Shown here piece by piece: positions 23,175 to 63,084 of a stretch of 64,000 bases of DNA. Location of the stretch: positions 5,146,001 through 5,210,000 of the forward strand of contig JAWMAR010000025.1 of NCBI GenBank assembly GCA_036785375.1, given 5' to 3'. The notes under the pieces are model-generated. The model had not been told where the DNA came from. It saw only the letters and a list, made by a program, of their open reading frames with translations, and made no database searches. The stretch comes from Leucoraja ocellata. Lineage: Eukaryota. Within the stretch, counting starts at the first letter, position 1; the number at the start of each line of letters is the position of its first letter. Both the position numbers and the translations under genes were made by a program.

Positions 23175-23370
23175 GTCACATCTTCCCCTCCCCACCCATC
23201 ATCACCTCTTTCCGCTTTCCATAGGGACCCCTCCCTCTGAAACTCCTTGGTCTGTTCGACCCTTCCCACCCAAAACTGCCTCTTCCCCAGGTACTTTCCC
23301 CTGCAGCCGTAGGAGATATAAGAGATGCTGCCTGACCAGGTGAGTTCTTCGGGCACTTTGTGTCCCATGT
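23175..23370 (+). mobile_element. Penelope-like element ORF remnant fused to the fold-back family tail
   Basis: Translates with frameshifts to HIFPSPP..LSAFHRDPSL.NSLVCSTLPT..PGTFPCSRRR, the RT-to-GIY-YIG linker of PLEs; followed directly by AGAGATGCTGCCTGACC. Confidence 0.7.
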
Positions 23371-24262: not shown

Positions 24263-27200
24263 GGTACAAAGCCTTCAATCTGCCAAAATCTGACATCTGA
24301 ACAATGAAAAGATAGATTCTTGATATTTTTACATTTCTGTTAGTCTTTAGGTTTGGCAAAATATTTGGATGTTTCACACTTTCTATATTTCAATAGGTTG
24401 ACATTGTTCTAAACTCATGTTTCACTCGTTAAAGTACCTTGTATTTTTGTAGATAAGAATTGTTGGAGAAACTCAGCGGGTGAGGCAGCATCTATGGAGA
24501 ATAGGAGTAGGTGACGTTTGTGGTCGACCCGAAACGTCGCCTACTCCTTTTCTCCATAGATGCTGCCTCACCCGTTGAGTTTCTCCAGCATTTTTTGTCT
24601 ACTTTGTATTTTTGTAGCATCTTTAACGTAATAAAACGCGCCATTGTGCTTCGTAGGAGAACCATTAAGTAAAGTGTTGTACTGAGTCACATGGGAAAGC
24701 TAGGGAAAGGTGACCTGAAGCTTGGACAAAGAAGCAGGGCCTTGAAGGAAAACAGGCTCCAGGAAGTTTAAGAAAGTTTAGCGGGCAGGCAAACTGAACG
24801 CATATGGAGTATAGAAATCAAGAAAGTCGAGAAGTGTTAAAATTAGAGGAGAGAGGTCTGGAGAGATGGGGAGGGGAGGGGAGTGGGAGAAGAGAGGTTT
24901 GAAAACAGAGATAACAGTTTCAAAGTAGAGATCAACACAAGACTTATAGAGTAGGAAGGAACCGCAGATGCTGGTTTAAACAAAAGGTAGTCTCAAAATG
25001 CTGGGGTAGCTCAGCAAGACAGTCCGCATCTCTAGGGAGAAGGAATGGGTGACTTTTCGGGTAGAGACGGCCTCAACCCAAAACATCACCCATTCCTTCT
25101 CTCCAGAGATGCTGCCTGTCCCGCTGAGCTACTCCAGTATTTTGTGTCTAGAATGCTTATTGAGGCATGAGTGTGACTTTGGTTCAGCTTAGAGATACAG
25201 CCGGAAACAGGCCCTTCAGCCCACCGGGTCCGCCCCAAACCAACAATCACCAATAGACTAGTTCTAACCTACACACTATATATAGAAGACAATTAACCTA
25301 CAAATCTGTACGTATTTGGAATGAGGGAGGAAACTGAAGCACCCGGAGAATACCCATGCGGACACAGGGAGAACGGACAAACACAGTACAGACAGCACCG
25401 GTAGTCAGGATTGAACCTGGGTATCTGGCACTGTGAGGCAGCAACTCTACCACTGCTCTACTGTCCAAGAGCTCCTAGGAATGTGTTTAATAGAGAGGGT
25501 CCATAGACTGTGGTATAAGATTTGGCGTTATGTTATTGATTAGAAGAGGTCATACAAATGAAACATTTATAGCAAAGGATTCTTGTAATATTTATTGCTT
25601 GGATGGATTTTTGTAGTACAATATTAGGTCTCAAGAGTTCCCAAGAATATGTTGGTAATTACAGGGATTTCCTAAGAGCATGTCATTAACTACAGCGCCT
25701 TCCAGCAGTGAATCCTTAATAATAAGTCATCTGAGTAATATGTCAATACTTACAGGCAATATGCCGGTCGTGAAATAGTCTTGCACTTCTATGTGGCTTT
25801 TGAACCCAAGTTGAAACGAAGTGCGATCTAGGCTATAAAGTACTTTTTGAAAATAGTCATTGTTTGAAACACAGGAAACAGAGGCAGGAATAATCAATTT
25901 GGTTCCCCATGTGTGCTCCTCTATTCAATAAGATCATGGCTGATCTCATGATGACATCAGTATCACTTTCCTGTACTGACTACATATTTCCTTTATATCA
26001 AAGCATCTACATTATGAGAGGATTTAAATCCAAGACTAAATATTTTCTAGAACAATTACATGGGGCCTTGATCTAACCATACATATAGTGTATTGTTTAC
26101 AGCTTTGGCCTCCCCAGCTGAAAAGAACATCCTTGCTTTAGTGAAGTCCAGCAGACCAATTGTTAGAGTGTCTGTTACATAAGGAGGGGTTGAGTAAGTC
26201 AGGGAAGTGGTATCACCGCATGGGGCCACATGAGGAGCAAGGATGTGGGGTAAAATTGTGTAAAGACCATGTAACAAAGCATTGAATGTATGCATAGTCT
26301 CTGAGAACGTTGGAAGAATTTTCGCACATTACCTGTTTTGTATATATTTTTTACTTTGAATAAAGTTTCATTTTATTTTATTTTAAAATCAGGCCACTAT
26401 TCTCTCGAGTTTAGAACAAGGAGGGTAACCTGTTGAAATGTAGAAAATTCTGAAAGGACCAAAATAATGTTGCCTTCTCCTCGCTAACAATGATCTATTC
26501 TGCGTTTTCCTTGATCTTCATTCCCTTTGTCTCGTTTTCACACCTTACACTTTCTTATCTCTGTATCTCCCTCTCCCCCAACTAGTTCCGAAGAAGGTAC
26601 ACAAAAATGCTGGAGAAACTCAGCGGGTGCAACAGCATATATGGAGCGAAGGAAATAGGTAATGTTTCGGGCCGAAACCCTTCTTCAGACTGAAGGGTTT
26701 CTGCCCGAAACATTACCTATTTCCTTTGCTCCATAGATGCTGCTGCACCCGCTGAGTTTCTCCAGCATTTTTGTGTACCTTCGATTTTCCAGCATCTGCA
26801 GTTCCTTCTTGAACAGTTCCGAAGAAGGGTCTAGACCCGAAACTTCGCCCATTCCTTCAATCCACAGATGCTCTGCCTGTCCTGCTGAGTCACTCCAGCA
26901 TTTTGTGTCTACTGAACTGAATGTTCCGCTGGTTAATAGGTTTAAAGCTAGTGGGGGCATTTCAGGCATGGAATTTGTGGTAGCACATACGATAGCAAAG
27001 TTTAAGAGGCATTTAAATGGCCACATTAACAGGCAAGGGATAGAGGGACATAAATCATATGCAGGCAAATTGGCATAATTGTTGGCACAGACATAGTGGG
27101 CAGAAGGGCCATTCCTCTACTGAACCATTCTATGTTCAGATTGACATGAAGAGAAATTGATAGGTTATTGGAAAATTGTGGAAAAATCAAAGGCAATGGG

Positions 27201-28889
27201 GAAAGGGCAGGAAATTGTTGTTTCGGACAGAAGATCAGCCATGATCTTGTTGAATGATGCGGCAAGCTTGGCAGGCTGATTAACTTACTCATGCTCCTAT
27301 TACATAAGGTATGTTAATTATCTATGATTTACTGTAAATATATCAGATGACTAAGCTTTCTTTTCTCTCTTGAGTAGGGATTGGTGCAGCTGGTGGAGCT
27401 GCAGTCTCACAGTGTCGGAGATCCGGGTTCAATCCTGACCTCGGCTGCTGTCTGTGGAGTTTGCACGTTCCCCTCTGTGACCGTGTGTGTTTCCTCTGGG
27501 TGCTCAGTTTTCCTCCCACATCCTAAAGACATGTTTAGGTTGGCTTAGTTTAGTTTATAGTCACGTGTGCCAAGGTACAGGAAAAGCTTTTTGTTGCATG
27601 CTATCCAGTCAGCGGAAAGACTATACATGATTATACATGTGGGTTTGTAGGTTAATTGGTCTCTATAAAATTGCTCTGGGTGTAGGGAGTGGATGCAAAA
27701 GTCAGATAACATAGAACTGGTGTGAATAGGTGACGTTTCAGATGGTTGGCATTGACTCAATGGGCCGAAGGGCCAGTTACCATGCTGTATCTTTCAAGTC
27801 CAAGTCATTTCCTCTGGGTGAAAAGGTTTTTGTTATTCTCTTAGATATTTGGGGACTACCTCCATCTACCTCCAAAAATCATTGCAAAAATGCAAAGCCA
27901 ATTTGTGCGCAGGAGTCTCTCATGAAAAGCGAAGTGGTAATGACCAGATAATTTAATCTATCTGAAGAGGCACAAAATGCTGAAAAGGAAAAAGAATAGG
28001 TGACGCTTCAGGTCGAGACCCTTCCTCAGCCTGATAAAGGGCCTCAATCCAAAACATCACTTATTCCTTTTCTCCAGAGGTGATGCATGACTGGCTGAGT
28101 TACTGCAGCATTTTGTGTCTCTCTTCGGTGTAAACCAGCATCTGCAGTTCCTTCTTACACATGTAATCTAGCTGAGCTGGTTCAAGGATGATTATTGGCC
28201 AGGTCAACCTAATTCCTGTTTATCCTTCAGTCGGAAGAAAGGTCTCAACCCAAAACGTCACCCATTCCTTCTCTCCAGAGACGATGCTTGTCCCGCTGAG
28301 TTACTCCAGCTTTTTGTGTCTATCCTGCTTCTCCTTCATTCGTCTTTGGATCTTTCTGCTTTCACATTTGCTGAAAGATCTCATCTCAACAACCCTGCTG
28401 TCTTAACATCTGCTGTTAAATGTGATCCTGCTCTCCAATATGATCCCATTTCCGGAGGCGCTGGCTCGAGCTGGGATGCCGTGTCTCTCTAACATTGTTT
28501 TTTTTTAATTTCAAAATAGACTTTATTCAATTGATAAATATATACAATTCATGAACCATTCGGACAAACAAAATGCATCCGACATTTTCGGAGACTATAC
28601 ACATTTTTTCAAGTACAATTTTTGTGTCTCTCCCACTACTGCCCTGTGACATGGAGAAAAACAACTGAGAGGAAACATTTGGCCCAAGAGGGGTTGTGGA
28701 CTGGCTTTATTACACAGCTGGGGCAGGCTGAACAAAGATGAGTCAAAAGTTAATTAAAAAAAAATAAAAGTTCTGCAATTTCCTGCCAGTGTAGACCTTC
28801 AATGTAAACAGAAAAGAAAACACATTTGTCTCCATGCCCCACCCCTGGCTCCCTCCACCATGGACTCTTCATTTCCTCGACTTGTTTTT

Positions 28890-29569: not shown

Positions 29570-30957
29570 GTGAGTACTTGGGTGGATGGATCTCAGCGCC
29601 GGGCTGTCGCTCTCCTTGGATCCATCTCGATTCTCCAGAATAATTTACAGCTAAATGTCCAGCTCCTTCGCTGCGAAGAGTTTAAAGGGAATGAAAGTTT
29701 GTGTGTTTTGCTTTCTCGTTTATCTTGGAATAAGGATTGCATGGGGTTGGGCGCTGAATTAATCTGGTTAATTCAGAGGCCAGATTAACCGCTCAAGTTC
29801 CAACAGGGGCAGAATTAAAAGATGAGAGAAGATCTTGCGTTTTGGTTTCATGTGTTTCCCCACGGCTTTTTTTGCGGCTAAAGTTTGCCTTGTATGAAGG
29901 GTAGGTAGTCAGGAAGTGTGGCATCCGAGATGGAATTTTTTTGGTAGGAAACGTGAAAAACGTACTACTTTTTGGAAAGTGCCAGTCTACGCAAAGATCT
30001 TGGAGCTGGCAGACTCGTAGGTCAAGACCCCCCTGGTTTATTCCAGTCTGTCTGTGAGTGTTACTCCTGTTCTCACTGTGGTTATGTAGTTTCCTCCCAC
30101 AACCCAAAGACTTGTAAGTTGGTAGGTTAATTATCTAATGTATATTTTATCCCAGTGTGGCTAAGGGTCAAATCCAGTTTTTTTTTTTTTTTAATATATA
30201 TTTTATTCATTTGAATATATATTGTATCGTATTTTTTTCTGTATCTCTCTATATCACTGTCTATATCTCTCGTTTTCCTTTCCCCTGACTCTCAGTCTAA
30301 AGAAGGGTCTCGACCTGAAACGTTACATATTTTTCTCCAGAGACGCTGTCTGGCCTGCTGAGTTACTCCAGCTTTTTTTTGTGTCTATCCAGTTTCTTCT
30401 CATATACACATAAGATAGTGAGGCTCAGCTTGAAGAGTATGAGAGAAGGTCTCCCTCAAATTGAGTGGAGCAGGTTATTTGAGGGGGGAGGAACTTCGAC
30501 CAAGTCTGATGTTTTTAAATGTGTGCTGATGAAAGCCCAGGATATGTACGTCCCCGTTAGAGTGAAGGGCAAAGCAGGCAAACGCAAGGAAGCTTGGCTG
30601 ACGAGGGAAAATGAGGCGTTGGTCAAAAACCAGAAGGATGCATGGGACAGGTAGGTATAGGCAGCTGGGATCAAGTGCATCCCTGGAGTTTCAGGAATTA
30701 AGGAGTAAACTGAAAAAAAGAGATCAGACGGTCAAACAGGGGCCAGGGGATAGCTCTGGCGGGTAGCATTACGGACAATCACAAAATATTTTATAAATAC
30801 ATAAGGGGGGGAAAGGGTAACTAGAGAGAGAAAGTGGGACCTCTCAGGAATCAAAGAGGTTGCCTCTGTGTAGAGCCACAGGAGATGGGCAAAGTTCACT
30901 GTTACTATTTCTCCTCTGTATTTACCGAGAAGAAAGACAGTTCTAAGAGTGCTGGAC

Positions 30958-31698: not shown

Positions 31699-34122
31699 TG
31701 GAATGTTATAGTGGTCACTAAAAGGTGTAGTGGGGAATTAAAAAAACAAACTTATTTGTTAACAAAGTGATGAAAATATGGAACTGATGACCACATGGGA
31801 ATGATTGAAGCAACAAGTATACATGTACTTAAAAGGAGGGGAAAAAAAACAAATAAAGGGTTGCACTGAAAGTTTTAGATGAGGACTGATGACAGGAGAC
31901 TTGACCGAAAAGTAATGTAAAAACAAGGAACTGCTGATGCTGGTTTACACCAAAGGACAAAGTGTCAGAGTAACTCAGGGGGTCAGGCAGCATCTCTGAA
32001 GGACATGGCTACATGACGTTTTTGGGTCGGGACCTTTCTTCAGACTGATTGTGGGGGGAAGGGTGAGGACCACAATCAGTTTGAAGATGGGTCCCAATCC
32101 AAAACGTCACCTATCCACGTTCACCAGGGATGCTGCAAACTAAACGGGGCTCCAATGAGTTTAATAGGAGCATGGGAAATGTGGCATCACGGGGCTAGAA
32201 GGAGCTCTGGAATGGGGACCCATGTGGTTAGAGGGAGTGTGAGCAAGCTACATGCAACTCGGGAAATGGGGTGTTGATGAGGTTAAAGGGAAACAGATCT
32301 GGGTGCACAGATGCCATAACGATTGGGATTTCCAAACAATAGGCTAGCAGATTATCGACGTTGCTGTGCCTCGTGTTGATGGATTTTCATTATGATCTTT
32401 TCTCGAAGTGGAAATAATTTCCCTGACTCCATTCCTTCAAAACCCGCTTCATCATTTTAAACGTGCTTTGCGTGGCTTCACAACCCTCTTTTATCATGTG
32501 AAGAAGAGAGACAGTCTGTGTATTTCACGTTACGTCCATGTAAATCATCTCTGGATCCTTTCTGTTGTTTCCATATTCTTTCTCCAGGGTGGTGATTAGA
32601 ACAATACGCAGAACTGTTCGGTGTGGCCTAGTCATGGTTCGAAACATGTTTAGCACGCTCAATCTTCTTTCAAATTCAATCCCTTTGGAAATAAACTGCA
32701 GTGCATGCTGTGGTTCCATCCACCTTGGCTAAACTGCCGGGTGTAACCCTCATTGAATGGTTATGAGTACTCCAAGATCCCATTTGTCACACCCCACTCT
32801 CCCACCCTTGGGCAATTGAACCATCCTACCACAATGATAGAGCAGTCCTGAACTACTGTGCAAGAAGGAACTGCAGATGCTGGTTTAAACCAAAGATAGA
32901 CACAAAAAGCTGGAGTAACTCAGCGGGACAGGCAGCATCTCTGGAGTGACGGAATGGGTGACGTTTCGGGTCGAGACCCTTCTTCACTAGAACCTACTAT
33001 CTACCTCATTGATGACCCTCAGACTATCTTTGATTGGACTTTACAGGCTTTACCTTTCACTAAACGTTAATCCTTTATGTACCTGTACACTGTAAATGGT
33101 TTGATTGTAATCATGTATTGTCTTTCCACTGATTGGTTAGCACGCAACCAAAGCTTTTCACTGCACCTCGGTACCTGTGACAATAAACTAACCTGAACTG
33201 AAACTAAACACCACCCTATCTCCACTGCAGGTTTAAAGTTCTTAATAACCTCTCAGTTCTTCCATTCAAAATATATTCCCTTGCATTGGTCTGTGTTGAA
33301 CTTTACAGGGCTCTCACTTAACTATTTTTCCCTGTTGCCAGCCAGGCAACCTTGACAGCATTTTAGGTTGCCAAATGGCAGTTTAGGTTGTCATTTAAGA
33401 CGGTTTGCATGACGCATGCGATAATGTGCTCGGACGAAGTGCGTGGTTACCATTCGGAATTGTGCTCAATGAAGCATTTGCATATTATGTTCAAGAAGGA
33501 ACTGCAGATGCTGGAAAATCGAAGGTAGACAAAAGTCCTGGAGAAACTCAGCGGGTGCGGCAGCATCTATGGAGCAAAGGAAATAGGCAACGTTTCAGGC
33601 CGAAACCCATCAGTCTGAAGAAGGGGTTCTCCAGCACTTTTGTCTACATTCACATATTATTTCTGCTTCAAATATTGAATTGAATTGCATTGAATTGAAT
33701 TCCTTTATTGTCATTCAGACCTTACGGTCTGAACGAAATTTCGTGCCTGCAGTCATACATACAATAATACAATAATAAACAACAATAAACACAAATTAAC
33801 ATCCACCACAGTGAGTCCTCCAACCACCTCCTCACTGTGGTGGAGGCAAAAATCTTAGGGCTGCAGTCTCTTCCCTCCTCTTCTCCCTCTGCGCTGAGGC
33901 GATTCCCCACCGGGCGATGGTACAAACAGTCCCGCAGCTCACCGAACCCCGCGAACGGGCCGGTTCAAACACTGCGGCCCGGGGTGGTCGAAGCCGCCAC
34001 ACCTCCAGTCCAGCACACGCAGCCGCCGGCCCGCGCCTGAACCCAGGACTCTGGACACCGCTGCCAGAACGTCGTCCCAGCCACCCGAGCACCGTCCCAA
34101 CCCCCGGACCGGATCGCCCTCA

Positions 34123-34350
34123 CGTGAGTACCGTTCCACCCTCGGTCTGGGCCACTCCAGCGGGAGTGCCGTTCCTCCCTCGGGCTGGGCCACTCCGACG
34201 GGAGTGCCGTTCCTCCCTCGGGCTGGGCCACTCCAGCGGGAGTGCCGTTCCTCCCTCGGGCTGGGCCACTCCCACGGGAGTGCCGTTCCTCCCTCGGGCT
34301 GGGCCACTCCAGCGGGAGTGCCGTTCCTCCCTCGGGCTGGGCCACTCCAG
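34123..34350. repeat. 38-bp GC-rich minisatellite, 6 copies
   Basis: Unit CGGGAGTGCCGTTCCTCCCTCGGGCTGGGCCACTCCAG at 34123 (diverged), 34161, 34199, 34237, 34275, 34313; degenerate partial copy at ~34372. Confidence 0.95.
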
Positions 34351-34596
34351 CCCCTCACCAGGCCGCTCTCACGGGAGCACCGTTCCATCCCGGGCTGGGC
34401 CGGGAGCGAGCCCAGGACGAGTCCTGTCGGCTGCCTCCTGAGTCCCGAGGTCGCCGGCTCCGCTAGGCCTCAGCGTAGACGGAGGCAGAGAAGGGGGATA
34501 CGACAAAAAGGTCGTATTCCCCCGAAGGGAGTGACAGCAGCCCCCGTTTCACCCCCCACCCCCCTCCCCACATAAACACAGCCTAAAAACCAAAAA

Positions 34597-36142: not shown

Positions 36143-38247
36143 GCACACACACACTCGCACATATTCTCACTCATCCACAACTTTAGAAATTGTGTTCTTG
36201 GCTCCAGAGTTTAAACCATCAGTGTAGATTGTGAATAGCACTGATCACAGTGGCATTCTCTGCTTTCTGTCTTAAAACAGCCAGTACAGCAATCCGGTTT
36301 GCTCTTTTATTTTCCCTTGAATTGTCTGGTGTTCAGCAATCCATTTTGTGGGTCCTTTCTAGAGGACTTCCAAGGTCTAGTATTAAATCATCAATGTCAG
36401 TACGCTCTCCCTGTTATCTATTCGATAATTAACAAAGATTAGTCAAGCAAGATATTTCCCTTTAATGTCCCTGCTGACTTCATTACAATTCTTTTGTTTC
36501 TTGATATTCATCTCTCTTTAGTGGGGAATCTATTATTTTTCCAAACACTGGCTCTGTAATGTCCTGGGCCTGTTCCAACTGTCTTCTTCTGCCAATGGTT
36601 CAATGGTGCTTTATTGTCACTTGTTTCTCGAGTCCAACACACGCGCTAAGCCTCGGGCTTCTGCAGGGCCTTTGTCTGGATTGTTCAATGAACTGACCGT
36701 CCTCTCCTCGATCGGGCACCTTTGTGCCCCGGCGGTGCCTACCACAGTTAACCTTGAGGGCGGGTCACTTCTCACTGACCGACCTTGTTCCTCGTGGCCG
36801 TTTTCGCCGGCTCCCCTCTCTTTGGTTCTCCGGCCTTCATGGGACGAGCAGGGGCCGGGCTCCCCACCCCCCCCCCCCCCCTTACAGGCCACAGCCCACC
36901 CAGCCTCTCTGCGTCTGGCCTCTCTGCGTCTGGGTTCCCGGTTCCATGGTGGACGAGCCTGACTGCTGCCTGGTATGGCAGCGGTTCACCGGGATCCTTC
37001 TCGTCCAGATTTACCGAAGCTGTCTACATTCTGTGGCACGCGCTTTTTCCTGGTGATTTATTATTATATTTATATTTGGAAAGACAGCAAGAGGAAGGTC
37101 GCGTACAAGATGAGTAGGCGGAATGCGCAGGAAGGAACTGCAGATGCCGGTTTACACCGAAGATAGACACAAAATGCTGGAGTGCTGCCTGTCCTGCTGA
37201 GTTACTCTAGCATTTTGTGTCTATCTTCGGATAAGTAGGCGGATTGATTTGGTTGTATATAGTGACATTTTATTTGTTGTGCATCCTATGCAATATATGT
37301 GCACAGTGGGCTCAACAACAGAAGGTAGAATGAATACAACATAACTCTTTAGTGATGTTGTTGAGGGCTAAATATTGACTGCGGACCACTGAGGAAAACT
37401 TCCTTTCTCGTCTTAAATAGTGGCATTGAATCCTGACGCCCTGCAGGGGGGGATGAATGTGAGGATGAGAATTTTCAAACGGAGGCATTGATCGATTTTG
37501 CAGGCTTGAACACTTGTGGTAGAACAGTTGGTTTCTGCAGTAGGGCAGTGTTCTTCCAGAAAGCTGAGTTCTTCTGGATTGAATTCCCTTGATTACCTAG
37601 ACTTCATGAAAGTAGTTTCCCTTTTAAGAAGTGGGAGGGTGACTAAAGGAGTTTGGAGTTGTCTCTATTCCTGCTGATTCTAGTGGAATTTAGTGACATT
37701 ACTTCTAAGATACTTAAATTTAATCCCAAAGAGTTGAAGCGCCTGCTCTTTGAGTCTGGAAAAGTTGAGGAATAGTAATTTTCCACTCATTTGCATGTGA
37801 CTCTTTGAAGAAACTACCCATGTCAGACACTTTCCTGAGATTTCTATTTCAATTTTAAAACTGTTTCTGTTTGAACAGTTATTTTAAATTTCCTTTTAAA
37901 TCTGTTGTCATCAGATTTTCAGGCTATATCATTGCATCTCGTTGCTTTTTCTTAAATCAAACGAAATGTCTCCATTTTTTTAGCCAAAAAACTGATTGCG
38001 ATTTGATGCTGTTTCTCCTTCTTTCCTCGCAAATCTTCAACATCTCCAACAAATGTCCCGTCAGCATTTTCAATTCCCAAGATAACTGTTCCACTTCTCC
38101 ATTTCTTCACATTATTGCAGTCGTCTAAAACGTTGGTACGGTCACATTTGTGGTATTGTGTGCCAGTTCTCGTTGCTTCATTACAGCAGGAAGACTGTGG
38201 AGGCTTTGGAGAGGGTGATGAGGTTTACCAGAATGCTGCCGAGATTA

Positions 38248-41008: not shown

Positions 41009-41838
41009 TATAAGTGCATTGAATCCCCAGCTGTTGCCTGGAATGGCTGGATGTCTTGTGTAAAAGTTGGCACATGCTAGGTTTTATTTCGGGACCCTTC
41101 TTCAGACTGGTCCCTTTCCCCTGACTCTCAGTCTGAAGGTGGGTCTCGACCCTAAACGTCCCCTATTCTTCTTCCCCAGAGCTGCTGTCTGACCCGCTGA
41201 GTTACTCCAGCTTTTTGTGGCTATCTTCAGTTTAAACCAGCATCTGCACCTGCAGTACACTATGCTTTTATTTGTTGTTTAGGAATGAACCATATAAGAC
41301 ATCTGGGTCTTAACAGGATGGATGCAGAAAGGATGTATCACCTGGGACAATGTAGAATTGGGGTCAATTAACATGCATATAAAACAGAAGCGAGCATTTT
41401 TCTCTGGGGGTCTTGATTCTTAGCAACTTTTCCTCAAAGGGTGATGGTAGCAGAGTTTTTTTAATCTTTTTAGGTCAGAATTACATGGTTGCTTGATTAA
41501 TAATGGAATCAATAGTTATTGGGGATTGACAGATGTGTAGGGACTGATAATCTATCAACGATGACGTTAGCATCATTGGGTGGTGTAGCACAGAAATGGA
41601 TACTTTGGCACAATGCCTCCATGCCAAGCAAGATCTTTTGTTGTGTGGTAACTAGTCAGCTGAAAGACAATACATGATTACAATCACATCATCCACAGTG
41701 TATGGATACATGATAAAGGGAATAATGTTTAGTACGATATAAAGTTGAGTAGAGTCTTCTATTAATGCATTTGTCCAAAATGTCTTGTAAATGTTGTAAT
41801 TGTAATCTTTCAAACACTCTCTGGCTACTTATTCCATA

Positions 41839-42798: not shown

Positions 42799-43070
42799 TT
42801 ATTCCATACAGCCTCCACCCGCTCTGTGGAAAAAGTTGATCCTCTGGTTCCCTTTTAAATCTTTCCCTTCTCACCATAAATATATGCCCCCTAGTTCTTG
42901 ATTCCCAACCTTTGGAAACAAACTGTGTACAATCACCTTATCTATGCCTGGTATAATTTTAGACATATCTGTGAGATCACCCACTGAGTTTCCTAGGCTC
43001 CAAGTAATAAAGTCCCAACCTGCACAATCTATCTCTGCAACTCAATCCCTTGAGTCCTGGCAACATCCTC

Positions 43071-43198
43071 AGTCTGAAGAAGGGTTTCGGCCCGAAACGT
43101 TGCCTATTTCCTTCGCTCCATAGATGTTGCTGCATCCGCTGAGTTTCCCCAGCACTTTTGTCTACCTTCGATTTTCCAGCATCTGCAGTTCCTTCTTG
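43071..43198 (+). ncRNA. Minimal type I hammerhead-like motif at the start of a Penelope-derived repeat
   Basis: CTGAAGA(43074)-A-GGGT-TTCG-GCCC-GAAAC-GTT; has the CUGANGA and GAAA boxes, stem II and the palindromic ACGT. Confidence 0.55.
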
Positions 43199-44981
43199 AG
43201 CAACATCTCATAAATCTTTTCTGCACTCTTTCCAGCTTAATGGCGTCTCTCCTAAAGCATGGTGATCAAAACTGAACGCACAACTCCCAAGTGTGCCCTC
43301 ACCAATGCCTTGTACTGCTGCGACATACAACATCTTTTCAAATGGTAGAGCAGACCTGAGGGTGTGAATGATCTACTCCTCATTTGTGTGTGTGTGTGTG
43401 TGTGTGTAAATATTTTCATAAAATAATACAGAACCTAATCCAATAAAACAAACAATTCCAGCGTGTTCATACTCTGCATAATTTGCTGACATCATCAATG
43501 TGACCTTTCCTGTTCTTATCTAACTTTTCCTTAAATGCATACAATATAAATGTTGCTGTGATACGTATCAGTGCTGAAGCATTGGTTGGGAGGAGGCACG
43601 AGGAACTCAGCGGGTCAGGTAGCATCTCTGGAGAACATGGTTAGGTAACGTTTTGTGTCGGGGACCCTGCTTCAGACAGGCATTGTGATCAGATCAACCA
43701 TATCCTGAGATTTGGAGGGGTAAGTGACGGGTTGGAAGTGGTTCAGTCTTGTATTTTCTTGGAGTGCTCCATGATGATAATTTCCTGGTTGTTTGATGTT
43801 ACTCTTGAAGTCCAGCCTGACATTTTCAGGAGTAACATGTGTGTGGATTGCAATTCATCAAACAGTACTGGCTTTGGGCATTGCTGGACAACATTTATTT
43901 GTAGAGGGTTCATAACTGGGAACAACTGAGCACAACCTGACCTTCCTGGGGAAGGTAGACACAGAATGCTGGAGTAACTCAGCGGGACAGGCAGCACCTC
44001 CAAAGAGAAGGAATGGGTGATGTTTTGGATTGAGACCCTTCTTCAAGACTGAAGGTCCCAATCCTTAATGTTCAGACCTTCAGACTGAAGAAGGGTCTCG
44101 ACCCGAAACATCACCCATTCCTTCTCTCCAGAGATGCTGCCTGCCCCGTTGAGTTACTCTGGCATTATGTGTCTTATCTTCGGTTTAAACCAGCATTTGC
44201 AGTTCCTTCCTGGTGCAGGGCTGGACTTGACCCTTGTAGGGTGAGTCCTTCCTCCCCTGAAATCTGATTGAAGCAGCAAGGTACTGGCTCTTTCCCCGAG
44301 CAACAAGGTTCCAATGCCTTCCTTACCCCCGCTCTTCCCCTCCCCCCCCCCCCCCCCAAACCCACAGCACAGACACAGCTGGCTGCTGGCCAGCATAGAC
44401 AGACCATTCACCCTCCCCAACATGTGCAACACCTATTCATCCACTTCTAAGACCTCTGATATTTACAGTGGGAGCCCAGCGACCAGAATAACTGTTGGAT
44501 GTCCACTGCAGATCTTTTTATCTGTACTGAAAGCACTGGGTCAGGAAGTAATAAACAGTACAGATTGGATAAACCCAGTCAGCAACTTGGTGATGAAAAC
44601 ACAGCTAATCTCAAAACAACGACACATTCACTCAAAGCTGGGATAGATTTCAAAAGCAAAGTCAGCTGTGCAGGAGAATTCGGCATACGGTTTCAAGAGC
44701 CATACAAGGAGGCAGGGCATGTTTGAGAAGGATCGTTTCATTTATTAGGGACCCAGGTTAAAGACACTGACGCCAAAGGGCAAATGAACGGCAACTCTTT
44801 TTAGTGGTGATAGGGTTAGTAACAAGAGGACAAAGAATTAAGGCGACTGGCAAAAGAACAAGAGGCAAAATTTAACATGGACAGTGATTTTGATTTTGAC
44901 TGCAGCACCAAGCAAGGTTGTGGCTGACAATTGGGTGCTGGGTGAACACGTAGTAAAAATTGTCAAGTAAGGAGACTTTAT

Positions 44982-45650
44982 TGTCATGTGTCCCAGATAG
45001 GACAATGAAATTCTTGCTTGCTGCAGCACAACAGAATATTGTAGGCATAAATACAGAACAGATCCGTGTGNNNNNNNNNNNNNNNNNNNNNNNNNNNNNN
45101 NNNNNNNNNNNNNNNNNNNNNNNNNNNNNNNNNNNNNNNNNNNNNNNNNNNNNNNNNNNNNNNNNNNNNNNNNNNNNNNNNNNNNNNNNNNNNNNNNNNN
45201 NNNTTTGTTTGAAGTTGTCTTTAATAGTCTTATGACTGTGCGGAAGCAGCTGTTCCTGAACTTGGATGTTGCAGATTTCAGGCTCCTGTACCTTCTACCT
45301 GATGGCAGCGGAGAGATGAGTGTGTGGAAAGGATGGTGTGGGTCCTTGATAATGCTGGCAGCCTTTTTGAGGCAGCGACTGCGATAGATCCCCTTCGATG
45401 GTAGGGAGGTCAGAGCCAATGATGGACTGGGCAGTGTTTACTACTTTTTGTAGTCTTTTCCGCTCCTGGCCGCTCAAGTTGCCGAACCAAGCCACGATGC
45501 AATCGGCCAGCATGCTCTCTACTGTGCACCTGTAAAAGTTAGAGAGAGTCCTCCTTGACATACCGACTCTCCGTAACCTTCTCAGGAAATAGAGGCGCTG
45601 ATGTGCTTTCTTTATAATTGCATCGGTGTTCTGTTACCAGGAGAGATCTT
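44982..45650 (-). mobile_element. Rex1/Babar-clade LINE 3' fragment spanning the assembly gap
   Basis: SRRTLSNFYRCTVESML..; tail at 44982-45070. Confidence 0.85.
45071..45203. other. Assembly gap (133 N)
   Basis: Run of n. Confidence 1.
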
Positions 45651-48830: not shown

Positions 48831-50749
48831 ATGTTTCTAAAGTATCTGACCAGTTCTTTATCGTGATAGACACAAAAAGCTGGAGTAACTCAGCGGGACA
48901 GGCAGCATCTCTCTGAAGTTGCTCCAGCTTTTTGTGTCTATCTTGGCTTTAAATTAACATCTGCCGTTCCTTCCTACACAGTTCTTTATCGTTCTCTGCA
49001 TGTGCAAAAAAATGCATGTTCTTTATTGTGGGGGTGACGGTGAATGACAAAGTTACCCCGCTCGTTTGTAATGTTTTGAAAAGCATTTGCCTTTCCTTGA
49101 TCTCAGAAGACACATATTCTGAAAACACATTTATTTGACATTATTGAGTAAAAATTGTGCTTTCCTGCATTGCAGAGCGTTTTTAGTGGCCATGATTCTA
49201 GTTTTTCAGATAAAATACAGACTGTTGTAGATTCTAAGGGCTTCCTGCACTTTTTGTTGTAGTGAAGTTAAATGAAACTCCACTCGCCAACCTAATATTT
49301 CTCAGTCATTTTCTTTTCTCCCATCCACAGTCCCATGCACAGCCTTTAAACAAGTTGAACCAGTCTGATATTCACAACTTGGACAAAGAGAGAGACCATC
49401 TTCCCTGTGCCCCGCCTGCCCCTCTTTCCCTTCCCACTCTCCTCCACCCGTCCCATCTATATCCTTTCCTCTAACTTCACACTTCTCTTTATCTGACAAC
49501 CTTTTTGCTCCTTTTAATCTCAAGAGTCAAGAGTGCTTTATTGTCCTATGTCCCAGATAGAATAATGCAATTCTCACTTGCTGCCTGTTTCCAGCCTTTA
49601 TCTCTCGCCTTTGTCCACCCGTCTGCTCATCAAAAACACCCCTCGCCTGTATCCACTGGCCAGGCTTTGTCCCATCCCCATCTCTTTTCCAGCCTTCTCC
49701 CCTCGACGGCAATCAGTCTGAATAAGAGTCCTGACCCAAAATATCACCTATCCATGTCCTCCAGAGATGCCGCCTGGCAAGACACCACACAGGAGATTAT
49801 TAAACAAAATCAGAGGCATGGTATTTAGAGTAACATGCTTTTCCACTTCTGGAGGAGTTGGAACAGTCTAAACTCTCATTCAGATACCTGCAAAGCACAC
49901 GTCCCTACCCCAATCCCCACTGCTTTTCCTGACAATTAGATTTAGCCCACGTCAGCAGTTTCCAAATGAGATATTCGCAGGTTGGAGTGGTATTGCTGCA
50001 TTCAGTATTGGTCTCTACTGAAATCCTTATTCATGCCAGTTGCCAGCCATCAATAAGTTCCACAGAAGAGAGATTCCAATGCTCAGTAATAGGAGTTGCA
50101 CATTAATATGGTGTAATGTGGATGGATTGGCTAATGAATGGGGAAGAGAGCAGGAATTAGCAAGCCCTTTTCGGGGTGGGAGACCATGACTGGTGGACTG
50201 CTGCTAGGATCCAACTCTTCAAGTTCATGTCAGTAATTTTGAAGAGGGGGATCAAATGTAATATGTATTCCAGCCTGTGAGCAGTGTGGATGCATCGAGG
50301 CTTCGGGGGATATAGATGGGTTAAGTGTATGAACAAGCACAGGCAGGTGGAAAAATAGAAACATGGGCTATTCATTTAAACGGTGTGAGATTGGAAGGTT
50401 TGGTGTTCAAAGATCCTTGAGTGTTCTTCTCAATGTCCTGGGGGCATTTAACCTTTTAACCAGTCTCAGTAAAAACATATCTAGTCATTACTGCTGTTGG
50501 CAAGACCTTGGTGCACTCAGCAATCAGGGATGAGCAATAAATGTAGAACTTACCAGCGATCCTGCATCAGTAATACCAGTAATACCAAATGCAGATTGTA
50601 CATTATGTAAGGACCAAGCCTTTAAAGAAGGGCATCGGCGATGTACTGCTTTGGGATATCCTCTGCTGACGTAAGGAGCACTATCAACACGAGTGCTTTG
50701 CTCAACTCACCACAAATTAAGTTACAATACTACGACCTCCCAAGGTTGA

Positions 50750-51321: not shown

Positions 51322-51358
51322 AAACCAGTATTTGTGAGATCTCCAGCATTACGTTGAG

Positions 51359-52417
51359 ATGGCAACGGTTGTGATGGAGCAGATTGGCAGACTCTTCATC
51401 AACATCCAGCAGATCCGTCAGATCCCCAGCCTGGTGGAGCAGTCCATTCCCAGCCTGCCGTGCACGGTGAAGGACTGCGAGGTGCCGCAGATATTCCGGG
51501 AGCCCTACATCCACTCTGGCTACCGGCCCGTTAAGCAGAGCTGGCGCTACTACTTCTTCACCCTGTTCCTGCGGCACAACGAGTCCGTCAACGTCTGGTC
51601 CCACCTCTTCGCCGCGCTGATCGTCCTCCTCAAGCTGCAGGAGTTCTCCCAGACGGTGGACTTCTGGTCAGATCGGCACGCGCTGCCGCTGCTGATCCTC
51701 CTCCTGACCGCCTTCACCTACCTGGCCTGTAGCTCTCTGGCCCACCTTTTGCACGCTCGCTCCGAGCTTGCCCATTACTCCTTTTTCTTCGTGGACTATG
51801 TCGGCGTGGCTATCTATCAGTATGGCAGTGCGTTGGTCCACTACTACTATTCTGCCGAAGAGGAATGGTACCACTTCATCAAGACCTTCTACCTCCCCGC
51901 AGCCACCCTGCTGGCTTGGTTGTCATGTGTCGGATGCTGCTATGCAAAATCCAACGCTAAGCAGCTTCGCCCCATGTCTCGCAAACTCTACCAGGTAGTC
52001 CCGGCAGCACTGGCCTACATGCTGGACATTAGTCCCGTGCTGCACCGGATATACAGCTGCTATTCCTCCAGTTGCACTGACTCTTCCATTTGGTACCATG
52101 AATGCCAGGTCATCTTCTTCCTCATAAGTGCCCACTTCTTCTCTTGTCCCCACCCGGAGAAGTGGCTCCCTGGAAAGTGCGACATTTTCCTGCAGGGGCA
52201 TCAGATTTTCCACGCCTTCATGGTCCTCTGTACCCTGGCCCAGCTGGAAGCCATTCATTTGGACTTTAAGCACAGGCAGCATTTCTATCAGACTTGGCAC
52301 AGCAACTCCACCTGGACTGTGTTGGGCTGTTTTGCCGTGGTCATCTCCTCCAGTGTTATTACGGTGGCTTACATGAGGCACCTCGTCAGAGTCAAACTTG
52401 GCCTCAAGGAGAAATGA
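51359..52417 (+). CDS. paqr7: Membrane progestin receptor alpha (PAQR family member 7), 352 aa, single coding exon
   Basis: N-terminus MATVVMEQIGRLFIN as in fish mPRalpha; PAQR motifs PYIHSGYR, HNESVNVWSH, SSLAH, DYVG, PEKW.PG.CD, HQIFH; multiple TM segments; strong Kozak GAGATGG. Confidence 0.95.
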   Translation: MATVVMEQIGRLFINIQQIRQIPSLVEQSIPSLPCTVKDCEVPQIFREPYIHSGYRPVKQSWRYYFFTLFLRHNESVNVWSHLFAALIVLLKLQEFSQTVDFWSDRHALPLLILLLTAFTYLACSSLAHLLHARSELAHYSFFFVDYVGVAIYQYGSALVHYYYSAEEEWYHFIKTFYLPAATLLAWLSCVGCCYAKSNAKQLRPMSRKLYQVVPAALAYMLDISPVLHRIYSCYSSSCTDSSIWYHECQVIFFLISAHFFSCPHPEKWLPGKCDIFLQGHQIFHAFMVLCTLAQLEAIHLDFKHRQHFYQTWHSNSTWTVLGCFAVVISSSVITVAYMRHLVRVKLGLKEK

Positions 52418-54650: not shown

Positions 54651-54871
54651 TAGATCGGCTCAAGCCAATAGTACCATAGTTGGGATCAAACCTGGCGCAG
54701 TTATGCAGCAAGTCTACAGCTGCACCACCGTGCCCCCCTCTCATAGAACACTTTCCCCAGGGATGATTATTGGAGAGGTAGAACAGCAATATTTACACTA
54801 ATTTCCACTGCTGCTGCCTGGCCCACTTTGTTCCTCCAGCACTTTTACTCAAGATTCCAGCATCTGCAGTT

Positions 54872-55372
54872 ACATAGAAAATAGGTGCAGGAGTAGGCCA
54901 TTCGACCCTTCGAGCCTGCACCGCCATTCAATATGATCATGGCTGATCATCCAACTCAGTATCCTATACCTTGCCTTCTCTCCATACCCCCTGATCCCTT
55001 TAGCCACAAGGGCCACATCTAACTTCCTCTTAAATATAGCCAATGAATTGCCCTCAACTACCTTCTGTGGTAAAGAATTCCAGAGATTCACCACACTCTG
55101 TGTGACAAATGTTTTTCTCATCTCGGTCTTAAAGGATTTCCCCCTTATCCTTAAACTGTGACCCCTTGTCCTGGACTTCCCCAACATCGGGAACAATCTT
55201 CCTGCATCTAGCCTGTCCAACCCCTTAAGAATTTTGTAAGTTTCTATAAGATCCCCCCTCAATCTTCTAAATTCTAGCGAGTGCAAGCCGAGTTTATCCT
55301 GTCTTTCTTCATATGAAAGTCCTGACATCCTTGGAATCAGTCTGGCGAACCTTCTCTGTACTCCCTCTATGG
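54872..55372 (-). mobile_element. Young CR1 LINE 3' fragment
   Basis: MSGLSYEER..SLEFRRLRGDLIETYKIL..LWNSLP. Confidence 0.92.
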
Positions 55373-55809
55373 CTTATGTCTCCATCTTACTGCTCCACTA
55401 CAAAACCTCTTCAAAGTATGCCTACATTGAATACGTTCTCGCTCTGATGGTAGTTCTGTGAGACTTCTCTCACTGCTTCCCCCTCTGTGATTCCTTCTTC
55501 CCTCCTGCTTTTTAACATATCTGAAGAAGGGTCCTGACTGAAACATTGTCGATCCATTCTGTCCACAGATGCTGCCTGACCAGCAGAGATCTTCCAGTAC
55601 TCTGTGTTCAGCTTTAATCTATCGTGGCTGCACTGATCCTGTTGGACAATGTACAAGGAACATGATGAACGAAAGTAATGAGAACTCAGCACGTGTGGGA
55701 TTATGGTGGATCTTTAGCTGGAGTGTGAACTTCATAATGGCTGCCACATTCCCATACACCAATCCCAACCCACTTGTTATACATTTTGATCAATAATCCC
55801 TTCTGCATA

Positions 55810-56180
55810 GTGTAGGAACGAACTGCAGATGCTCGTTTAACCTGGAGATAGACACAAAAAGCTGGAGTAACTCAGTGGGTCAGACAGCATCTCTGGAGAA
55901 AATGAATAGTTATTGATTTGGGTCAAGACCCTTCTTCAGACTGAAGAAGGTTTTTCTTTAGAAGAGTCTCGATCCGAAACGGCACCCATTCCTTCTCTCC
56001 AGAGATGCTGCCTGTCCCGCTGAGTTACTCCAGCTTTTTGTGTCTGTCTTTGGTTTAAACCAGCATCTGCAGTTCTGAAGAAGAGTTTTGGCTTGAAACG
56101 TTGCCTATTTCCTTCGCTCCATAAATGCTGCTGCACCCGCTGAGTTTCTCCAGCACTTTTGTCTACTTTCTGCAGTTCTC
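55810..56180. mobile_element. Composite Penelope-derived fold-back plus a tandem second unit
   Basis: Inverted arms 55815-56073 followed by CTGAAGAAGAG..GAAACGTT unit of the second subfamily. Confidence 0.7.
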
Positions 56181-58629
56181 TCCTCCACGAGGATTATCCA
56201 TTCATACCACACTGGAATTGGAAATTCTGACTACTGCAATGTAAACACTTTAAAAATCCTGTTTTACAATCCTGTGAAGGGTGGAGTAGCAAATGACAAG
56301 AGAACATGTCACAGAGACATCACAGGAGGTGCGAGTATGACTTCCAGTGACATACCTAACTTAATACACTTTTTTCTTTTCCCACTTATGAATATGATGT
56401 GCAAGTATGTGTTTAGATTGGAGGCTGAAATGAGTTGATTTTCTCAACTGTAGGGTCACACAGACAGGCACACACACACACGCACACAGACAGACAGACA
56501 CACACACACACACACCCATCTGGCCCATGTGCTGATTTGAGTTAAGAGTTGTGTGAGAAAGAAGAAGGAATTGACTGGATATAAAAACTGAACATCCGTC
56601 GGGAAAAAACACAGTTAAACTTAAAGTCTAAGTCCATTTGTCAGAACTGGAAAAGATAATAAAACAAGTTTTAAGTTGCAATGTGGGTGGTGGAGGGAAG
56701 GGCAGGATAAAAGGAATGACTGGTTAGGGTGAGGCTTCTGTAACCATGGCGACAAGGTGTGATAAAGCTATTTGGTTGATAGATTAATGAGGGTGATTAC
56801 AAGGAGGGAATATAAGAAAAGGACATGTCAAATGGTGCCACGCAGGGCTGTAGGTGAACTTCACACAACAGACTATAAGTAGGCATAAATAAATACAGAA
56901 CAGAACAGGTCAGTGTGACCATATACCAATGAATATATATTTACACACATGAATAAACAGATAAAGTGCAAGGAACTGCAGATGCTTGTCACAAACAAAT
57001 AGACAAAGTGTGCACCTGCTGAGTGACTCCAGCACTTTGTGTGTCTGGGTTGTGGGTTCATTGGCTTCTGGACATTGCCCCTAGTATGTCGAAAGCCAGT
57101 GGGATAAAGTAGATCCAATGGGAACAGGTGATCAATTTTCTCCATGGACGAGGTGGGCCGAATGTCCCATTTCCGTGCTGTATGTCTAGGACCAAATACT
57201 TAATCACAAAACCTTATGCCTAAAAATATTTCATCACTGGCATTACTTCACCATTATAAACTGAGGAAACAGGCTTGGCAGAAAGGCATGTATAGTTTTC
57301 ATTGTCTGATGATACCTTTCATCACCTGTATGGTCCTGTGCCGGAATGGACCTGCCACGTGACCGTGCGTATGCCTGAGGTGTTCAATCTTCACCTGACC
57401 TCCTGACACTTGTGCAAATCCCTGCTAGATTTATTCCACCTTGCTCCCCTCCAGGCTTCTATGCACCTCCCACATGCTCACCTATTGTGTTGCATCAGCT
57501 CCCGTTCTAACAAAGTCTCAAGTTCAGAATCCTCACCTGGTTTTCAAGTGCTTCTCTGGCCTTTCTTGAAAGGTATGAGTCACCGGTTTAGCATGGAGTA
57601 TTATTTGCCTCCATGGGTGCAGGGTGACTGCCAAGGCTTGGTAATTGAATGATATTTGCAGTTGCTTGCAAAGGAATGAGAGATGATCTCATTCCATTCC
57701 ATCGAAACAATGTGGTTGAGTTTTTAAATTCCAATGAAACCCCAATCATTTGGCACTACCACAATGTTTAATACTATCACAATGTTTAATAAACATTTGG
57801 TACTATGACAATGTTTCAAAAACATTTGGACAAGTACATGGATAGGATGGGTTTAGAAGGATATGGGTTGAACAGGCAGGTGAGACTAGTGTAGATGGGG
57901 TATGTTGGTCGGTGTGGGCAAGTTGAGCCGAAGGGCCTGTTTCCATGCAGTATGACTGTCAGAGTATAACACACAATGGATTAAAGAACCATGAGCTTAT
58001 CATGGAGAAGGCAAGAGAATGGGGTTGAGCGGGAAAGATAGATCGGCCGTGATTTAATGGTGGAGTATACTTGATGGGAAGAATGGCCTAATTCTGCTCC
58101 TATAACATGAACTATAAACTATATGTTAACAAAAGCAAAGTTAAAATGATTTGTGTTAAGTTTTGTTTTAATTATTTGAGCACTATAGCTGGGCAAGTGG
58201 CTCATGACCATCACTGAAAGACGTCTTGCTTTTGTTGGAGCTACACAAAGAAGACACAGGCTTACATGCTGAAGATAGACACAAAATACTCTAGTAACTT
58301 AGCTGGTCAGGCAGCATCTCTGGAGAAAAGGAATAGATGACGTTTCGGGTTGAGACTAAGTCTGAAGAAAGCAGTCTAAAGAAGTGTCTTGATCCGAAAC
58401 ACCACTTATTCATTTTCTCCACAAATGCTGCCTGTCCCGCTGAGTTACTCCAGCATTTTGTGTCTATTTTTGGTGTAAACCAGCATCTGCAGTTCCTTCC
58501 TGACCCGAATTTAATTAACTGATCTCATCTATGCAATAGTTGGGCAGAATCATTCATTATAATTAAAACAGGAATGTTTTCAGCATTTTCTGTTTTTAAT
58601 TTAGATTTTCATTACAGTAATTTTGGATT

Positions 58630-59530: not shown

Positions 59531-59567
59531 GTAACCAGGGTGTTGAAGAGACAAAGATAGATTAGAT

Positions 59568-59726
59568 ACAAAATGCTGGAGGAACTCAGCGGGTGAGGCA
59601 GCATCTCTGGAGAAAAGAAATGGGTGACGTTTCGGGTCGAGACCCGAAGGGTCTCGACCCGAAACGTCACCCATTCCTTTTCTCCAGAGATGCTGCTTCA
59701 CTCGCTGAGTTACTCCAGCATTTTGT
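59568..59726. repeat. Near-perfect Penelope-derived hairpin, 78-bp arms, GAA loop
   Basis: Ungapped inverted arms 59568-59645 and 59649-59726. Confidence 0.85.
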
Positions 59727-60317
59727 GACTACCTTTGATTTAAACAGGCACCTGCAGTTCTTTCCTACACAAGATAGATTAGATAAACAGTACATAAGGC
59801 AAATATAAACTATGAGCAGTAAAGTGGAAACGCAAAAGACTGTAAGGCATCTGGACAGGCAACATCTGTGGCGGCAGTATTTCTCTGCACAGAATTTGAT
59901 CAAAGTACACGCAACACCCCATAGTATTGTGCTATTGATACCAACCCATATTTGCCTTTTGTTAATGACTAGTTGGTTATCTGTTACCCTCCCTTCTCTC
60001 TCAAGTCCTGCCTTGTTACAGATCTGAGGGTGGCCACTCCTCGTACAAACTCAAAGCAACCAGCATGCTGCCTGGTGAGACTACTATATTCGCTGAGACT
60101 ACATTGTAGACACATTTTTCTAATGATGTGGTGGGTGTGTTACTGCATATTGATCAACCACAGGAACCTGTTTTAATTGTAGGCTGCCTCTGTCCCATCC
60201 TAACCTCTGCTTACGCATGAAGCCGCTCTCCTGTCAGTGTGGCTCGGGTTAGTTAGTTTGGTGGATAGCTGGAAAAGTCCACTATGCCCAGTAATACGAT
60301 GGTAAGTCCAGTAAGTG

Positions 60318-62709: not shown

Positions 62710-63084
62710 TGGCTAGATCTCACGGTGCGACCTGATGCAAGATCTCTCCCGAGTGAAGTGGTCGTGGTCCAGTAAGAGTTCCACAAGAGTTCCGCACGAT
62801 ATAGCGGGAGGTAGATAAAGAGTTCCCACGGTACTCTGCAATTCTGTCATTTTTGCGAGTGACTTGTCCGTCTCCCGATCTTTCCCAGTAATCGTGAATG
62901 AACATCGTGGAATGTAGTGTAGTTCATCACGTGGCACAAATGATGCCACTTTTTTTTCACACACTATAAATATAACCTCCGTTCTTAGAATTTGCTCGTT
63001 TGCAGACATGCCTATACAAAGTATGTTCGAGTACAGGCTGGTTGTTATTTTCATGGAAGTGCTGTATGCATTAGCGCTGCATAT

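Follow-up and report, generated by a model that had tools for sequence, protein, structure and literature searches.

What is the short repeat that recurs throughout this part of the Leucoraja ocellata genome, and does the hammerhead-like motif that it carries still act as a ribozyme? We addressed this within a single 64-kb window, the whole stretch of 64,000 nucleotides analysed, from which all statistics given here are drawn. The commonest repeat of the window is a Penelope-like retrotransposon end of ~100–135 bases, present in 56 copies that make up 7.6% of the bases at a density of about one per 1.1 kb. We are fairly confident that these copies are 5′-truncated pLTR ends of an EN+ Penelope-like element (PLE), mostly arranged head-to-head, with a hammerhead that is broken in nearly all of them and is likely inert.

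The first-pass annotation of this DNA had reported an abundant repeat with a hammerhead-like core, and such a repeat is clearly present. The pattern CTGANGA-N(4-16)-GAAAC occurs seven times in the window where 0.5 are expected, a number reached in none of 100 shuffles (0/100), and the self-BLAST depth of the repeat, up to 44, is the greatest in the window, with other families at 14 or less. The same pattern search recovers the sites reported at 10923, 21191, 43074 and 44085, as well as one on the minus strand at 26664–26688; a further motif reported at 56074 is present, although its start is corrected to 56075. A profile built from 12 copies was searched against the window at E≤1 and gave 60 matches, 54 of them at E<1e-3, with one weak match (E 0.48) in the reversed-window control. 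We retained 56 of the 60, leaving out those at 27743 and 29344 (E>0.2) and at 52642 and 59876 (E ∼0.02, judged unconvincing); the retained matches at 33624 and 41109 (E ∼0.1) are absent from the 54-row alignment. The consensus pattern originally put forward is exact at 43074, but this is just one of ten matches found at three or fewer mismatches. The 44085 and 26661 copies have ACAT where the ACGT palindrome is expected, C3 is changed to G in the copy at 32960–32987, one stem II pair is broken at 21191, and the 10923 copy carries three changes. The two proposed subfamilies both exist, A with a stem II and loop of GGGT-TTCG-GCCC and B with GGGT-CTCG-ACCC, although there are at least four subfamily groups rather than two; the labels used here are rough, and B* lumps several groups. 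Subfamily A is young, its copies showing a mean divergence of 5% from their own majority.

The focal copy at 43068–43199 (plus strand) is a solo subfamily A pLTR with the longer, tailed 3′ end. It is flanked by an exact 8-bp target-site duplication (TSD), GCAACATC, flush with its ends at 43060–43067 and 43200–43207 on the plus strand; a TSD score of at least 8 was obtained with 10 of 300 random position pairs. Its minimal type I hammerhead motif lies at 43072–43103 on the plus strand when read against the Fig S3 consensus in the available part of PMC4209133, according to which PLE minimal hammerheads have CUGANGA followed by one extra base, a G10.1-C11.1 pair, GAAA-C-G-U-H, and a palindrome that replaces helix III. 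Each of these features can be recognised. Positions 43074–43080 read CUGAAGA with an extra A at 43081; stem II pairs 43082–43085 with 43090–43093 (4 bp, closed by G10.1-C11.1) around a UUCG loop, and 87.9% of its cells are paired across 23 copies; GAAA at 43094–43097 runs into an ACGU palindrome at 43097–43100, with the cut predicted after U43101. Helix III is missing, positions 15.2/16.2 are palindromic, and the UH site is kept, with GAAA-C-G-U-U in subfamily A and GAAA-C-G-U-C in B. Stem I (43072–43073 with 43102–43103) has only 2 bp, one of them G-U, and 71.7% of helix I cells are paired; the native upstream context of subfamily A is seen just once, at 21188. The proposed Penelope origin, the assignment to minimal type I hammerheads in which a palindrome replaces stem III, and the description of stem I as weak are all supported.

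The difference between U-A and U-G in the two subfamilies had been taken to preserve stem II, but this is a one-sided change, and covariation in the stem (0.226) does not exceed that of column shuffles (0.230). A covariance-model search for hammerheads had also been suggested; an Rfam scan at E≤1 yielded nine matches in the window, with no hammerhead family among them. The published PLE hammerheads are mostly dispersed single motifs, as they are here, and nearby motifs on opposite strands are noted there too (PMC4209133, available part). Helix I of 2 bp, with its G-U in subfamily A, is shorter than the 3–5 bp of most examples in Fig S3, of which a few (D. virilis, Culex and Oikopleura) have a helix I of two G-C pairs; no cartilaginous fish is among the Fig S3 rows examined. 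Directly before the hammerhead, in a number of unlike upstream settings, there is a pyrimidine-rich run plus YAG, resembling a 3′ splice site (30277–30296, 41113–41132, 10439–10465, 49690–49717, 21160–21190, 28210–28231 and 26560–26586). An intron of the D. virilis Penelope ends at helix I (PMC4209133, available part), and judged by sequence these runs could represent a conserved acceptor site of an intron.

Core, stem II and palindrome are all intact in only two of the 29 copies that span the core (43070 and 56075). A core no more conserved than its flanks had been named as evidence against the ribozyme reading, and copy by copy this is what is found, with non-CpG mismatches at 24/316 core positions versus 248/2637 downstream (p 0.35). 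CpG decay is 9/33 in the core versus 19/94 downstream, and G12 decays like any CpG. The comparison between subfamilies gives a different picture: the A and B majorities differ at 0/13 fixed hammerhead positions versus 12/61 downstream (p 0.11), and the changes that separate their hammerheads affect positions that tolerate substitution (U/C at 17, an A/G change opposite U, and the loop). This pattern fits selection in the source elements, although other downstream blocks are equally constant.

In 13/13 copies folded the hammerhead-compatible fold lies 0.8–17 kcal/mol above the best fold, and all but one of the 13 have a stem II probability of 0.06 or less; for copy 43070 it is 0.01, with the hammerhead fold costing 6.3 kcal/mol. 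The focal copy folds no better than its shuffles (z 0.15), and RNAalifold finds no consensus structure for 23 copies. An alternative rod that pairs the core with the downstream pyrimidine tract in several copies was considered and set aside, having no alignment support. Where two copies stand as inverted pairs, the arms are predicted to form hairpins of −95 to −171 kcal/mol (eight pairs folded) in which the motif pairs with its own antisense. The hammerhead motif is likely inactive at these sites, and the doubt originally expressed about catalytic activity is supported, with two of 29 copies intact and a competing structure predicted in all 13 copies folded. Sub-threshold Rfam matches (E≤1) to miRNA-like families at 301–405 and 26639–26737 and to a plastid RNA at 20670–20759 coincide with inverted pairs, and such pairs are likely to give rise to spurious miRNA calls in the genome.

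These results bear directly on the idea that a PAQR pre-mRNA is cut by these copies, acting from an intron as active or co-opted ribozymes. The host gene is a single-exon PAQR-family CDS at 51359–52417 (plus strand; PF03006, E 8e-55, with matches to adiponectin-receptor chains), presumably paqr7, with an acceptor-like site near 51322 ahead of the CDS. Several sense-strand copies had been placed in its presumed intron; 25 plus-strand copies do lie upstream of the CDS, but so do 20 on the minus strand, so that there is no strand bias. The 43074 copy is in the sense orientation upstream of the CDS, and both it and 56075 keep all core positions. Against this, 27 of the 29 cores are broken, the low stem II probability and folding cost given above apply to this very copy (43070), the hairpins of paired copies sequester the motif with its antisense, and a minimal hammerhead described in the available part of PMC4209133 showed no activity as a monomer and only weak activity as a dimer. 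We regard a ribozyme role in PAQR expression as very improbable.

The arrangement of the copies is more informative about their origin. Thirty-eight of the 56 form 19 head-to-head pairs, tail-to-tail neighbours number 0 (p 4e-6), and the remaining 18 are single arms. Their 3′ ends are bimodal, falling at model positions 83–110 or 121–132 (∼35 nt apart, with none at 111–120 and four shorter), and the two sites bound a 'tail' of ∼30–35 nt that in the focal copy occupies approximately 43168–43199 on the plus strand. Long and short ends are combined in 14 of 17 classifiable pairs (p 0.006) after two composites, 20618–21284 and 27966–28160, were re-read by eye through their TSDs; the raw count is 12/16 (p 0.038). 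The other three of the 17 are long/long or short/short. TSDs range from 8 to 18 bp; a score of at least 9 is seen at 7/19 pair loci versus 6/300 random position pairs, and two further pair-locus TSDs emerge on re-reading under a looser rule. In the available parts of PMC8557442 and PMC3846280, EN+ PLE insertions are described as carrying an inverted, 5′-truncated pLTR, a tail of 30–40 bp that is often at one end, and TSDs of 8–10 bp. All of these elements are found here: inverted head-to-head pLTRs (19 versus 0), 5′ truncation, TSDs, and a tail that is often at one end (bimodal 3′ ends, 14/17 long/short). The head-to-head pairing, the two 3′ end sites and the TSDs had been missed in the first-pass annotation.

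Pairs are distributed across the window, and those with recognisable TSDs include 256–431 (long/short; 11 bp, one mismatch), 24451–24611 (short/short; 18 bp, one mismatch), 27966–28160 (an internally deleted short arm and a long arm; 15 bp, two mismatches), 37128–37232 (long/short, the tail-less arm reaching ∼25 nt further 5′; 14 bp, one mismatch), 43951–44212 (B type, a short minus arm and a long plus arm with the 44085 motif; 11 bp, one mismatch), 48865–48975 (short/long, without a hammerhead; exact 14 bp) and 59563–59766 (short/long; 17 bp, one mismatch). Long/short pairs also occur at 10794–11018, which holds the 10923 motif, 24953–25150, 33492–33651 (subfamily A) and, without a hammerhead, 56969–57044; short/long pairs at 2631–2844 and 58260–58502; and a short/short pair lacking the hammerhead at 22569–22636. 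At 31922–32137 both arms of a D-type pair reach upstream of the hammerhead, and at 41078–41248 the plus arm includes 20 nt of upstream sequence also present at 30277–30296. Solo B copies lie at 28228–28324 (plus, short end) and 32861–32987 (minus, long end, C3 changed), a solo D-type copy at 43597–43678 (minus) and a divergent copy at 55521–55621 (plus, short end). Reading 10356–11018 and 54803–55621 as single composite insertions was rejected for weak or no TSD.

Same-strand neighbours are few (n=3): two are nested insertions with TSDs of their own and one is a copy 72 nt away. A subfamily A pair at 26593–26811 (short/long, exact 14-bp TSD) has inserted into the hammerhead of an older copy, whose sequence continues at 26815–26912, and at 55814–56185 the right tail of a long/long B pair holds a nested A copy (56075–56168) with an intact core and an 11-bp TSD. 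These young A copies inside older pLTRs (26584–26828, in the hammerhead, and 56066–56179, in the tail) suggest some preference for pLTR targets.

Short non-coding units with inverted repeats and TSDs could be mistaken for MITEs with long terminal inverted repeats, in which case the resemblance to a hammerhead would be incidental. The outer ends are unequal, though, the junctions vary, TSDs run from 8 to 18 bp, 18/56 copies are single arms, and the motif agrees with the PLE consensus of PMC4209133 (available part) down to the extra base after A9, and we give this reading practically no weight. As for a tRNA-derived SINE head, ARAGORN finds 0 genes in the window (decayed heads would escape it), and no common head lies upstream of the copies.

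Is there a direct link to a PLE coding region? The same tail had been described as fused to a Penelope ORF remnant at 23175–23370; a pLTR piece (model 51–94) is indeed joined to the remnant at 23321–23364 on the plus strand, but it lacks the hammerhead because it starts at model position 51. The remnant itself (23175–23320, plus) is broken by one stop and by frameshifts, and contains GTFPC, which resembles the start of the Neptune rows in the available part of PMC8557442 Fig S2; it stops after GTFPC, before the Neptune CX2-5CxxC linker motif is complete. Read through with X it has no database homologue and no Pfam family. From its sequence it is likely to be the RT-endonuclease linker of a PLE. 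Recovery of an autonomous PLE with the same pLTR had been proposed as a check, and the 64-kb window contains no intact PLE ORF.

Further evidence comes from copies that extend upstream. A plus-strand copy at 30217–30389 and D-type copies at 10356–10570 (minus, with ∼130 nt of upstream sequence) and 49597–49778 (plus) all include 3′UTR-like sequence, and its pyrimidine-rich parts are held in common between 30277–30296 and 41113–41132, and between 10547–10570 and 49597–49620. Such extension into common 3′UTR-like sequence is expected of truncated PLE ends. In a B-type unit at 32856–32987 (minus) one frame of 44 aa is free of stops from end to end; a search with such a B-copy frame matched three database records, whose spurious gene calls use it, and one of these led to a record designated P0005. 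This matches window positions 30217–30375, upstream sequence and pLTR together (tblastn E 1e-10, 64%), with its residues 156–210 covering the UTR-pLTR junction of the 30217–30389 copy. In a shifted frame P0005 fits 9/10 positions of the Neptune GIY-YIG C-terminal motif (3/1000 shuffles), taken from the available part of PMC8557442 Fig S2; an earlier frame test, whose motif was picked once the sequences were known, is not counted. Its order is thus a GIY-YIG-compatible segment, then the UTR as at 30217–30296, then a B-type pLTR. Two further records, P0004 and P0007, show the same motif fit (7/1000 shuffles each), whereas P0006, a homologue of the same stretch, fails it (6 and 5 of 10); none of P0004–P0007 has a Pfam family. 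The GIY-YIG link is one of frame-compatibility in a spurious translation and not of DNA. Because P0005 both spans the UTR-pLTR junction and has a GIY-YIG-compatible frame, the repeat unit is likely the 3′ pLTR of a PLE. Residues 42–160 of P0004 cover pLTR and tail, followed ∼15 residues on by the shifted-frame endonuclease end, an order suggestive of an internally deleted PLE.

An internally deleted PLE is also the likely nature of one insertion in the window, 20618–21284 (16-bp TSD, two mismatches), which has two direct pLTRs and one inverted pLTR. The inverted one (20621–20747, minus) has the long end; the first direct pLTR continues into unique sequence, a later unrelated repeat lies at ∼20864–21152, and the second direct pLTR (21188–21285) has the short end. 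The unique sequence between the direct pLTRs, split by the later repeat into 20808–20863 and 21153–21187, contains a short broken frame and is the only place that shows subfamily A's own upstream context. The broken frame may resemble the start of elasmobranch PLE ORFs.

This locus is also pertinent to the proposal that the repeat is a non-autonomous, retrozyme-like family. By definition, non-LTR retrozymes consist of tandemly repeated units, each with its own hammerhead (PMC7229834; bioRxiv 10.64898/2026.07.22.740005; available parts), and those of metazoans resemble the present repeat in being short, non-coding, equipped with a type I hammerhead and related to PLE pLTRs, but differ in that the window has no arrays, a minimal rather than canonical hammerhead, and an inverted orientation. 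No head-to-tail array of the pLTR unit is present in the window, nor is one among 27 Tandem Repeats Finder rows, same-strand neighbours are mostly nested insertions, and pairs are inverted; a canonical hammerhead is likewise lacking, given the absence of helix III, the 2-bp helix I and the absence of an Rfam hammerhead match. As a description of the window the proposal is not supported. In a modified form, tandem sources elsewhere would have self-cleaved and circularised and been copied by a PLE, the window holding only their monomeric offspring. The A copies are young (5%) and, apart from those cut at a junction, begin either at the hammerhead or within it, 20618–21284 has two direct pLTRs ∼200 nt apart once the later insertion is removed, the core is unchanged between the A and B majorities (0/13), and in the available part of bioRxiv 10.64898/2026.07.22.740005 retrozymes occur in the single chondrichthyan sampled (1/1), with monomers common in some families. 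The same source reports that 8/9 Xenopus dimer elements gave no cleavage; here stem I has 2 bp, no tandem array is seen, same-strand neighbours are nested, and other groups run into 3′UTR-like sequence. We consider the modified proposal unlikely, though it has more to recommend it than the two alternatives discussed above.

For truncated PLE ends, we envisage that the PLE protein would nick both target strands, with the stagger setting the TSD length (8–18 bp), and that each nick would prime one cDNA, reverse transcription starting at two internal sites, with and without the tail. Uncut RNA would be copied for ∼100–135 nt, often stopping in the hammerhead region, and the two cDNAs would join head-to-head where the hammerhead or its vicinity offers short palindromes or microhomologies; alternatively, one cDNA would join the target, giving a solo copy such as 43068–43199. 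The inserted copies would decay afterwards. An Anolis PLE in vitro cuts and extends both strands, with two internal start sites that define the tail, and inserts mainly unprocessed RNA; its protein is predicted to be a dimer, and its hammerhead cleaves only when protein is present (PMC11167929, available part). In the source element of the present family, any activity of the motif would probably be that of a slow dimeric ribozyme assisted by protein. A template of cleaved RNA should produce an excess of 5′ ends at the cut, yet 40/56 copies start upstream of the predicted cut and just 1/56 falls within 3 nt of it; insertion can probably proceed without cleavage. Circularisation after cleavage would leave the same 5′ ends, however, and hide the signal. 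Other points against this account are that most copies of subfamilies A and B start directly at the hammerhead, as would also be expected of short non-autonomous masters, and that deletions arising later at the centres of palindromes may obscure which arm had extended further.

The joining step itself we attribute, with some preference, to two priming events. Both arms of a pair appear to come from one source, because they belong to the same subfamily group in 17/17 pairs tested (chance 0.47 per pair) and share eight rare variants versus 3.6 expected (p 0.03). The junctions coincide with palindromes, TCAG-N-CTGA and GTCGAC among them; only clear junction cases were used, because automatic junction mapping is noisy and over-extended the arms. 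Palindromic junctions, concordant arms and common rare variants would equally follow from self-priming fold-back on one template, perhaps antisense RNA, with the tail asymmetry arising from staggered endonuclease resolution, as proposed in PMC3846280 and PMC8557442 (available parts). This concerns the joining step only, and we think it the less probable course, if a serious one. In at least three pairs (37128–37232, 48865–48975 and 20618–21284, read by eye) the tail-less arm extends further 5′ and the other carries the tail, so that neither contains the other, although later central deletions could mimic this; moreover, the two 3′ ends match the reverse-transcription starts of another PLE in vitro (PMC11167929, available part).

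A more speculative extension of two priming events, which we rate as doubtful, is that the hammerhead has been retained chiefly for its role in RNA pairing and as a stop signal, rather than for catalysis. The ACGU palindrome would join two pLTRs, a dimeric PLE protein would prime one strand at the tail site and the other at the tail-less site, and both cDNAs would end and join in the motif. The 5′ ends of 39/56 copies lie at model positions 2–19 and just two at 20–44, where 15 of the 39 are at the model's edge and some of these 15 extend further upstream. Were this so, the dense mini-inversions would be a large natural record of PLE twin priming, and introns would bear a load of ∼100-bp double-stranded RNA hairpins.

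A close parallel is the Poseidon PLE of Anolis carolinensis, PAc (Frangieh et al. 2024, PMC11167929, available part), which likewise has two 3′ ends defining a 30–40-nt tail, a hammerhead upstream of the start sites, and copies made from uncut RNA, the last being inferred for the present family. The start codon of the PAc ORF is located within the hammerhead, whereas the family in the window reads AAG at that position, and the ORF remnant here appears from its sequence to be Neptune-like. Head-to-head orientation, palindromic junctions, a tail at one end and TSDs are shared with inverted-pLTR EN+ PLE insertions (PMC3846280; PMC8557442 Fig 2; available parts), but almost all the copies here consist of the last 40–135 nt, and TSDs are as long as 14–18 bp. 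We found no published description of this pLTR family among the matches listed for the hammerhead/Penelope and chondrichthyan transposable-element literature, as far as available. On sequence criteria the repeat qualifies as a PLE pLTR that carries a minimal hammerhead, a motif class already described. Since the literature already covers this class, its weak activity as a dimer and its presence in large numbers in the genomes of vertebrates, the repeat has little importance as a ribozyme finding. Its value is as a dataset: 64 kb yield ∼19 intact inverted junctions, for which end classes, TSD lengths and subfamily markers can be measured. Counting across the whole genome could separate twin priming from fold-back and show whether the hammerhead ever serves as a cut site. 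Inverted pairs are also predicted to form long hairpins in pre-mRNA that spans them, which could matter for RNA editing and small-RNA annotation.

Other features of the window include a second commonest repeat (depth 11–14; 34602–35110, 40399–40902, 54872–55373, 20864–21154, 4362–4607 and 61317–61924), which is likely to be the 3′ end of a CR1-type LINE, and a GC-rich 38-bp minisatellite at 34126–34351 (5.9 copies, 94% matches) inside a GC-rich insert. An assembly gap lies at ∼45070–45205, and the window has 133 N bases. At 62989–63669 (plus) there is a 226-aa open frame with a DDE_Tnp_4 match (E 1e-19), which may encode a Harbinger-like transposase or a gene derived from one.
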